In this document: piece after piece, positions 6,001 to 9,000 of the stretch
How the letters are laid out: every line of letters begins with the position of its first letter
Numbering within the stretch: position 1 is the stretch's first letter
Program-made: the position numbers
From: a virus
Taxonomy: Duplodnaviria; Heunggongvirae; Uroviricota; Caudoviricetes
DNA: 51,671 nt
Reading direction: 5' to 3' (one strand)
Virus record (IMG/VR): IMGVR_UViG_2718218104_000010

Positions 6001-9000
6001 ACGTGCGTTTTTCCGGGTCATAGTTTGACGGTACCTGGATGATGCGACCGCGGATATGGTAGTTCACCGTCATCTGCTGACCGCCAAACTGCTCCGCATC
6101 CACCTGCAGCCCCACAATCGCCGTGTTCGGGTAGCACTGTTTCACATCGATGATTTCGGTGTATGACGACCAGAGCGTCTTATTCTGCAGCTGGTCCGAG
6201 GTGCTGTCCGCTGTCTCCCGGACCATCCGGATGTTAAAAGGACGGGGAGGCAGATTATCCAGAATCACCGACGCCAGAAACTGCGAGGTGGTCTTGCCGT
6301 TAATGGTGACATCCTTTTCCGTCACCCAGTTACCGTTACGCTGCAACTGAATCAGCAGTCGGACAGAAGAGGGATTACGGTCGCCCTTTGAGGTGGTCTC
6401 CAACAGTGACTGCACCCCGAAGGTGACCCGCAGGCGGTCAATGTTCGCGGATGTAATGGTGCGCGTCACCGGCTTTGCCTTCGTCACTTCCACGCCCAGT
6501 GCGGTTTCAGCTCCGGAAGACTCAAAGCCTTCAGGTGGTGTCTGCTCCTGCTCCCCGGCGCGCCAGACCGCTGTCACACCATGTATCACAGGATTACCGT
6601 CCGTGTCCGTCAGCGGGGTTTTGTTCACCAGGATACTCTGCAGCCCCTTCACCGGACCTTCAATCGGCCCTTCACCAATGGCATCAATCACGCTCATCAT
6701 CTGCGTGGACTTAAGATTGTCCTTTGCCTCAACCGGCGTGTGCGCCCTGCCGCCACCTTTACCCATAATGTTCCTCTCAATTGGTATTATTAATCGCAGT
6801 GATAGGATATTGCACAGCTATTGCGCGATATCATCAGAACGCTGTTTGTTACCCTGTAACCAGCAAGCTCAGTCTGTTAACGGAATTAATGAGGGTTTTA
6901 TGAAATGTAAAATCATTGCTGCCATTGCCATGCTGACAGCAGCATCATGCGGATACGCAGCAGAACAGGAAGTCCCAATGAACCTTGTCAGTGCTGACGG
7001 AAAAGAAGTCAGCATTGGAAAAATAACCATTCAGGAGACCCCCTACGGTCTGCTGTTCACACCAGCCCTTCACTCTCTGTCTGAAGGCATTCATGGTTTT
7101 CATGTGCACGAAAAAGGAAATTGCGCCCCGGCACTGAAAGACGGAAAACCGGTCGCAGCATTATCGGCTGGCGGTCACTTTGACCCGAAAAACACCGGCA
7201 AACATCTTGGCCCCTGGTCTCCGGATGGACACCTGGGCGACCTCCCTGCGCTGTTCGTGACGCATGACGGAAAAGCGAACTACCCGGTCCTGGCCCCGAG
7301 ACTGAACTCATTAAAAGAGATTAAAGGGCGTTCTCTCATGCTTCATGCTGGCGGTGATAACCATCATGACCATCCGGAGCCCCTGGGCGGTGGTGGTGCG
7401 AGAATGGCCTGCGGCATCATTCAATAATCAGTCAGGTAAGGGGCGGGCCCCTTACCTTTATTCCTCAGGACGATAAATCCTTTCTCCCTGAAAAGAACGG
7501 CACATCCTCCCTCTCTGAGTTAATGTTTTTGTCGTGACATAAGAATAATTCCTTACACTCAATCTTCGTAACGCTCCCGCAGTTCCTGTCCGTGAGCACT
7601 GCGGGATTTTTTCGCTTTTATGCCTGCCGCCCGATAACCACCACCTTCCCGTCACCGCCTTCATCACGGGTACTGATGTCCTGGGAGATTCGCCGGGAGC
7701 CAACCAGCATTTCACCGTAAGGCACCGGCATCGGGTTCCCCTGGGCAATCATGTTATCCAGCGAGGAAAAGTACGTGTTCTGTCTGCCGTTATCCGTTGC
7801 GCGGTAATCCGGTGTTTTTGCCTTCGGGGCCAGCATCTGGGCCACACCGCCCAGAATCATGCTGGCTCCAAGTGAAAACAGCATCGTGGTGGCAGAAAAA
7901 CCACCGGCTGCCAGGGCTGAACCCCATAACGCCATTGATGCCCCGGCAGTGAAGAACGACCCCACGATGGCCGCCGCCCCCAGCACAATCTGCAGTCCAC
8001 CCTTTCCGGCCCCGGCCAGTCGCGGCACAATGTGGATGACCGTTCCCTCACCCAGCTGTTCGTGAAGACGGGCGTACACCGCCTCCGGTGCCGTGTCATC
8101 ACCGGCAATACGTATCTGGTACCAGCCTTCGTTCATCTGACGGCGGAATCCCGGCATCTGCATCGACAGGGCACGGATGGCTTCCGCTGCCGTGTTCACA
8201 TACAGGCTGAGGCGGCGGCCAAATCGTTGTAAATCCCCGTGAAGGCAGATACGTGCCAGTGGCGGTGACGCCAGGCTGAATGCGTTCGTCGTTGCCATTT
8301 TTCGGAATACCTCTCCCGTTTACTCAGTTGTTCAGGCAGATGGTGAAGCAGTTCACCGTTGCCGCAGTATATGGCGGCATGATTGGCCACCGATGCGCCA
8401 AAGCAGCACAGCAGGATATCGCCAGGCTGTGCGGAAGGCAGGGAAATCCTGTAAAAACCAGTCGCCTCCATATTGTCCAGGTACAGGTTCTGACCATTGC
8501 GCCACCAGTCATCCTCACGCTCAAAATCCGGCATATCAATTCCCGCCAGATGGTATGCATCCCGGAACAGCGTGTAACAGTCCGTCACCCCGTGCTCAAA
8601 GAGCCGTCCTGTCAGATGTGGCACACAGCGGAATTTATGAATTTCCCCCCGGCAGACCAGCCACCAGGACAGTGCACTTTTTATCTGCAGCCGCCGGTCG
8701 GCCTCGCTCAGCCAGGGCAGACCACCGGGATGACTGTGGACCAGTGCCACAATCTCCCCCTGCATCTCTGCCCGCAGCCAGTCTTCCGGTGCAATACGAA
8801 AATACGCCTCCGGCTCTGCAGAGATATTCACACAAGGGATATACCGCTCCCCCTCCGGCGTTCTCACCACGAAGCCGCACGACTCCGCAGGCGCACACCG
8901 CCGGGCATGCGCCAGAATCGCTGATTCAGTCTGTGTCATAAACCGGGATTTACTGCGAAAGTTTATTAATGGAAAGGAAACCGCCAAAATTAGCCACCAT

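Follow-up and report, generated by a model that had tools for sequence, protein, structure and literature searches.

The prophage-borne Cu,Zn superoxide dismutase genes sodC-F1 and -F2 of Escherichia coli O157:H7 have been characterised and published (D'Orazio et al. 2008, BMC Microbiol 8:166; PMC2569942). Here we analysed a sodC gene located between the tail genes I and J in a stretch of 51,671 nucleotides from a Caudoviricetes virus record (IMG/VR IMGVR_UViG_2718218104_000010), which as a whole is referred to as the window. The gene is sodC-F1/F2 of O157:H7: it is the same gene in the same Sp4-like prophage beside tccP2, and it occupies the same position between I and J. Taken together with the published work, our analysis makes it highly probable that the window holds a prophage-borne sodC-F in its Leu112 allele, which forms a self-contained moron (accessory gene) cassette in the I-J gap, is expressed in the lysogen and encodes an active, exported enzyme.

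The published work on SodC-F covers its expression, its biochemistry and its role in the host (PMC2569942). Chromosomally FLAG-tagged SodC-F was detected in uninduced logarithmic, stationary and anaerobic cultures, and the protein rose relative to the chromosomal SodC in bacteria residing within Caco-2 cells. The 299 bp preceding the ATG were fused to lacZ and studied in K-12 wild type and in an rpoS mutant, and expression was reported as not regulated by RpoS. The SodC-F1 enzyme is a dimer with an activity of 19,380 U/mg and withstands proteinase K and EDTA. LipoP predictions and fractionation pointed to cleavage by signal peptidase I after residue 20 and/or by signal peptidase II at AAS|C17, with protein in soluble and membrane fractions; through the AAS-C17 lipobox part of the protein is anchored in the membrane, and it splits between the soluble and the detergent phases. 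Mutants deleted for sodC-F survived less well in 250 uM H2O2.

Related genes are known from two Salmonella prophages. Fels-1 sodCIII (STM0924) occupies the same I-J slot as the sodC of the window and has the same opposite-strand orientation and size, but shares only 60.5% amino acid identity with it, has unrelated non-coding flanks and lacks a 106-nt remnant that accompanies the gene in the window (see below). Gifsy-2 sodCI (STM1044) likewise encodes a prophage-borne SodC of the dimeric type and lies antisense in the tail operon; its identity is 58.8%, and it is placed between the lom-like/M genes and L rather than between I and J. By transcriptomics, the sodCI transcript is high while the lytic genes are silent (PMC7067206). 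The I-J gap is also known to house non-coding cargo. The Hfq cross-linking peaks EcOnc22, EcOnc23 and EcOnc24 fall within the I-J gaps of the Sakai prophages Sp15, Sp14 and Sp11, respectively, on the strand opposite to the tail genes, while no EcOnc RNA is listed for the I-J gap of Sp4 (Tree et al. 2014, Table S2). The EcOnc22-24 RNAs measured about 85 nt on Northern blots and were destabilised without Hfq (Tree et al. 2014).

The gene under study maps as follows.

6900-7427, + strand: sodC-F, Leu112 allele (SodC-F1 protein), an exported Cu,Zn superoxide dismutase precursor with an AAS-C17 lipobox, identified by Pfam, NCBIfam and PDB matches

Over 1201 bases around sodC, the window matches the annotated sodC loci of many O157:H7 genomes with 100% identity, among them those of EC4115 and TW14359. 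The protein record of the identical annotated gene is WP_000649829.1, and its neighbours in the matching loci are annotated as tail assembly protein and gpJ. In reverse complement, the window corresponds to an Sp4-like prophage, with 99.4% identity to Sakai Sp4 across 23.7 kb and tccP2 at one end; the counterpart of the gene in Sakai Sp4 is sodC_1/ECs_1120. Nucleotide 335 of the window gene is a T and hence encodes Leu112, by which D'Orazio et al. 2008 define SodC-F1. As the Sakai Sp4 copy encodes Pro112 instead, the window derives from a different O157:H7 lineage, and the F1 and F2 alleles are not bound to one prophage across strains. The host prophages described for EDL933 in the 2008 study are CP-933R and CP-933V, whereas the copy in the window resides in the Sp4-equivalent prophage.

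The sodC open reading frame (ORF) comprises 175 codons on the + strand, from the ATG at 6900 to the TAA at 7425-7427. Its product matches Pfam Sod_Cu (PF00080) with 111.9 bits (cut-off 28.9; profile positions 3-133 of 133) and the NCBIfam SodC equivalog NF007628 with 218.4 bits (cut-off 165; positions 2-172 of 172), and the closest solved structures are bacterial Cu,Zn superoxide dismutases from Haemophilus, Yersinia and Salmonella (SodCI), with E about 1e-62. The copper ligands H68, H70, H93 and H149 align to H46, H48, H63 and H120 of human SOD1, the zinc ligands H93, H102, H111 and D114 to H63, H71, H80 and D83. R168 aligns to the catalytic Arg143 of SOD1 and C171 to C146, which takes part in the intrasubunit disulfide C57-C146; C75 lies in the loop expected for SOD1 C57, where the BLAST alignment has a gap and the equivalence is by motif alone. 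The N-terminus carries a putative signal peptide and the AAS-C17 lipobox. A divergent sodC in E. coli strain cM8a (NZ_CM176589.1, 1773543-1774070), with 80% nucleotide and 80.6% amino acid identity, retains all ligands as well as Cys17 and sits in the same I-J slot of a different lambdoid prophage. A preliminary description of the window had read the gene as a periplasmic Cu/Zn superoxide dismutase, and the Pfam, NCBIfam and structure matches as well as the ligand residues bear out its enzyme family.

The surroundings of the gene consist of the two tail genes and a segment that differs between related phages.

3293-6766, - strand: tail tip/host-specificity gene J, an ORF of 1157 aa with seven Pfam GpJ/tail-tip domains, annotated as gpJ in EC4115
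6772-6778, - strand: ribosome-binding site of J, GAGAGGA, read from the sequence, at the left end of the variable segment
6767-7511, + strand: sodC-specific cassette of 745 bp, delimited by BLAST of 6400-8000 against the Stx2c phage LC727877
7618-8298, - strand: tail assembly gene I, an ORF matching Pfam Lambda_tail_I (E = 1.5e-16)

By ORF calls and Pfam, the whole J-I intergenic region spans 6767-7617 (851 nt), and sodC lies within it between I and J on the strand opposite to the tail operon, just as previously described. The start of gene I is annotated shorter in RefSeq than in the ORF call. A minus-strand ORF at 7465-7599 (44 aa, GTG start) was rejected as coding; its C-terminal half consists of cassette-specific DNA, and its shortening to 26 aa in sodC-less phages also counts against coding.

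Homology with LC727877 reaches the J start codon (6766) and restarts at 7512, so that the cassette corresponds to 6767-7511. The sodC-less relatives have 131 nt of unrelated sequence in its place; in Stx1a and Stx2c phages without the 745 bp, the flanks are 96-98% identical and the matches come in two pieces. The DNA directly upstream of the J start codon varies among the alleles of the slot, and because the ribosome-binding site of J sits in this variable segment, each allele brings its own J site. Among 151 flank-matching phage records, sodC occurs in only two, both of Stx2a phages. The cassette is found in 547 of 5426 complete E. coli genomes with one to five copies each, and the carriers include O157:H7, O55:H7, O145, O103, O111 and O26; the tail module itself occurs in roughly 1,900 E. 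coli genomes. Most O157:H7 genomes in this collection have one copy, not two (median 1), and the cM8a lineage is rare in it. The cassette is at least 99% identical in 542 of 549 records (the other seven fall below 99%) and occupied the I-J slot in every case inspected, including a copy on a 420-kb plasmid and the divergent allele. Its GC content is 50.5%, compared to 57.4% for J and 60.2% for I.

Juhala et al. are said to have defined a moron in 2000 as an extra gene between conserved phage genes that has its own signals and is expressed from the prophage. The cassette sits between genes that are adjacent in homologous phages, has its own terminator and has a base composition unlike that of its neighbours. 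Its classification as a moron in the preliminary description is upheld by these features together with its absence from the Stx1a and Stx2c relatives.

In lambda the I-J gap is 60 nt long, in the sodC-less relatives of the present phage lineage about 240 nt. The notion of a normally tight I-J junction, which had accompanied the first view of this locus, fits lambda but not this lineage, in which the gap contains the opposite-strand EcOnc22-24 locus. Since the sodC-less gap is already wide and houses a small-RNA locus, sodC is best described as a replacement allele, occupying an accessory slot on the opposite strand that is used recurrently. The gap with EcOnc22-24 (EcOnc22 at Sakai 2902714-2902774) shares 85% identity with the Stx2c phage gap and is composed of two modules. 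Module A is the Hfq-bound part, a GC-rich hairpin that shows one compensatory change among its variants. Module B consists of a sigma-70 promoter on the + strand followed by about 100 nt and a terminator; its promoter reads TTCACA-16-AATAAT (10/12) in the Stx2c phage and TTCACA-16-TATAAT (11/12) in strain cM8a. Module B is not among the EcOnc RNAs listed in Tree et al. 2014. In cM8a the sodC allele replaces module A only and module B is whole, whereas the O157 allele in the window replaces module A and also the promoter of module B. What is left of module B comprises two overlapping features.

7512-7617, + strand: promoterless 106-nt remnant of module B, shared with sodC-less phages; homology resumes at 7512, and the promoter is missing in the window
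7575-7621, + strand: distal terminator, TCCCGCAGT...ACTGCGGGA then TTTTTTCGCTTTTAT, with the hairpin at 7575-7606 and a T-run that overlaps the stop codon of I

The stem of the distal terminator is invariant in five variants, while its loop varies in length and sequence. The 106-nt remnant probably serves sodC as a distal terminator and 3' untranslated region (UTR). A literature search by sequence strings of the remnant returned no matches. The EcOnc22-24 loci thus share with sodC the slot and the strand, and their gap's 3' 106 nt persist beside sodC; they differ in being non-coding cargo, and their Hfq-bound segment is absent from the window. A more far-reaching possibility is that the I-J gap of enterohaemorrhagic E. 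coli lambdoid prophages serves as a dedicated site on the opposite strand, expressed in the lysogen, whose cargo can be exchanged (EcOnc22-24, the unit of about 100 nt, sodC), and that the remnant, made only as the 3' UTR of sodC read-through transcripts, could yield a small RNA coupled to sodC expression. We regard this idea as speculative and unlikely.

Some observations concern the small RNAs themselves. On the tail-gene strand, the Hfq-bound hairpin of EcOnc22-24 (then TGTTTTTGTG) has the form of a canonical intrinsic terminator, which it does not have on the published strand; the strand and the ends given for this RNA look uncertain. Anti-small RNAs of the AgvB/AsxR type were dismissed as candidates for the I-J gap, as they are located at the PR' moron site. 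The small RNA PasB of enteropathogenic E. coli is reported to lie inside a phage structural-gene operon (bioRxiv 10.64898/2026.05.13.724894); it may correspond to one of the I-J gap modules.

The alleles of the slot also bear on an alternative history, in which sodC is ancestral to the tail module and the sodC-less phages lost it by deletion without any insertion having occurred. The presence of sodC in the same slot both in Fels-1 (60.5% amino acid identity) and in the divergent E. coli allele indicates that the arrangement is old, and the direction of exchange cannot be read from two alleles. Yet the sodC-less alleles are not plain deletions: they contain 131 unrelated nucleotides, in which lie a conserved hairpin of their own and an Hfq-bound RNA described in print. 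Furthermore, cM8a keeps the entire downstream promoter-terminator unit and the O157 allele lost the promoter of this unit, which fits the arrival of sodC beside a pre-existing unit. The gap in lambda is just 60 nt, and the genes of O157, Fels-1 and Gifsy-2 share no relationship in their non-coding flanks. On balance we consider an ancestral sodC improbable and favour its description as a replacement allele.

Within the cassette, the following signals and candidate signals for sodC expression were located.

6782-6790, + strand: candidate extended -10 motif for sodC, TGgTATTAT, from a lenient scan and below the threshold of the consensus scan
6818-6849, + strand: 32-nt block invariant in the alignment of the O157 and cM8a sodC alleles, containing TATCAT at 6829-6834
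6891-6895, + strand: Shine-Dalgarno sequence GAGGG, read from the sequence, 4 nt ahead of the ATG and conserved in cM8a
7434-7463, + strand: proximal intrinsic terminator of sodC, with a perfect 10-bp stem, a 4-nt loop and TTTATT

The proximal hairpin (7434-7457; AGGTAAGGGG-CGGG-CCCCTTACCT, then TTTATT) starts 7 nt past the sodC stop codon and folds with -17.4 kcal/mol (z = -2.2 relative to shuffled sequences). Its stem is kept in the cM8a allele with a different loop. The hairpin has no T-run on the - strand and does not face the tail operon; the only minus-strand terminator-like match in the region is weak (6 bp) and lies inside the sodC ORF. Both the Shine-Dalgarno sequence and a private terminator with a perfect stem had been recognised in the preliminary description, which gave the stem as 9 bp where we measure 10 bp. 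Upstream of the gene, the extended -10 candidate is retained by the cM8a allele (TGaTATGAT; 80% identity between the alleles) despite diverged surroundings, and the invariant 32-nt block may represent a promoter, an operator or an element of the 5' UTR. The cassette thereby offers two candidate positions for the sodC promoter, 6782-6790 and TATCAT at 6829-6834. Comparing the DNA on either side of the O157 gene with Fels-1 sodCIII and Gifsy-2 sodCI gave no usable conservation for footprinting.

Gifsy-2 sodCI is reportedly regulated by PhoPQ (Golubeva and Slauch 2006). No PhoP-box-like repeat was found upstream of the O157 sodC: the search for (T/G)GTTTA-N5-(T/G)GTTTA gave a sole 9/12 match, which lies over the ribosome-binding site and was judged meaningless. 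An Rfam match to STnc400 at 7391-7467 on the + strand, covering the 3' end of sodC and the terminator, reached 23 bits (E = 0.19), where the gathering score is 80; it did not recur in the Salmonella sodC loci and was taken as chance. Apart from STnc400, the Rfam E-value scan of 6000-8500 gave just one snoRNA match, likewise taken as chance, and scans of the Gifsy-2, Fels-1, Sp15 and Stx2c loci gave no matches.

Several points weigh against a self-contained, lysogen-expressed cassette. A scan of 6400-8000 for consensus sigma-70 promoters found none, and the best upstream candidates of the lenient scan are weak or depend on the extended -10 motif. The T-tract of the proximal terminator (TTTATT) is short and interrupted, and the transcript ends in the window are predictions from the sequence. 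The promoter-fusion results of the 2008 study are stated as "data not shown" (PMC2569942), and in the literature reviewed a contribution of sodC-F to animal virulence is not shown. The results on the promoter would also suit an explanation in which sodC lacks its own promoter and depends for expression on prophage read-through or on induction. This explanation conflicts with the orientation of the gene: sodC lies antisense to the late operon and cannot be expressed by late transcription, and the + strand upstream of sodC consists of 3.5 kb of antisense J. In addition, the extended -10 motif is kept in the divergent allele, and the expression from the 299-bp fragment alone, fused to lacZ in phage-free K-12, was reported as RpoS-independent, with the protein being present in uninduced cultures (PMC2569942). 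We therefore hold read-through or induction as the sole source of sodC expression to be very unlikely.

The protein is made in uninduced lysogens. This agrees with the initial proposal of a lysogenic-conversion gene that is expressed independently of phage late transcription, for which the protein in uninduced cultures, the reported expression from the 299-bp fragment in phage-free K-12 and the H2O2-sensitive mutants all provide support (PMC2569942). A lack of transcription in the lysogen, named at the outset as the result that would refute this proposal, has effectively been tested in print, where the protein was found in uninduced lysogens (PMC2569942). The checks suggested along with it, promoter mapping and a comparison of superoxide dismutase activity with a deletion mutant, had largely been carried out by D'Orazio et al. 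2008. That sodC could instead be a decaying or silent prophage remnant without function, as might be thought of Sp4-type prophages that are partly defective and carry insertion sequence (IS) elements, can practically be dismissed, given an intact ORF with every metal ligand, at least 99% identity of the cassette across 542 records, 57 synonymous versus 34 non-synonymous codon differences from the divergent cM8a allele with the ligands kept, and published assays of an active purified enzyme and mutants with a phenotype, which already refute such a reading (PMC2569942).

Within the self-contained cassette, these elements would work together as follows. The sodC cassette points against the late operon within the I-J gap of the Sp4-like lambdoid prophage, and its own promoter inside the 299 bp upstream of the ATG would drive sodC in the lysogen. 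Transcription would halt at the one-directional hairpin 7 nt past the stop codon; transcripts escaping its short T-tract would stop at the second terminator 140 nt further on, by which gene I would be shielded from antisense read-through. The precursor is exported and in part lipid-anchored via Cys17, and the stable, highly active dimer clears periplasmic superoxide and adds to the oxidative-stress resistance of the host. Since no T-run follows either hairpin on the - strand, the Q-modified late transcript would pass antisense through the cassette during lytic growth. With respect to its origin, the cassette probably displaced a portion of an older accessory locus; in sister prophages this locus codes for the Hfq-bound EcOnc22-24.

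As such, sodC-F is a textbook case of lysogenic conversion, in which the phage supplies its host with an extra and sturdier periplasmic superoxide dismutase. Knowledge of the gene goes back to the O157 genome papers and that of its biochemistry to 2008, and the window gene itself yields no new biology. What the comparison adds is the recurrent I-J slot with Hfq-bound small RNAs as alternative cargo, which may be useful for studies on EcOnc22-24 or on moron exchange.

Elsewhere in the window, a segment of about 1.3 kb at 23791-25101 is absent from the otherwise collinear alignment with Sakai Sp4 and matches IS629/IS1203-type elements of the IS3 family at 95-96%, which makes it an IS insertion compared with Sakai Sp4. 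Other matches of the IS629 type occur at about 37513-38840. Positions 1-830 match the repeat-containing pseudogene region of tccP2 (Tir-cytoskeleton coupling protein 2) by the tail-fibre end of the prophage, and show the offset self-matches typical of the proline-rich repeats of tccP2.

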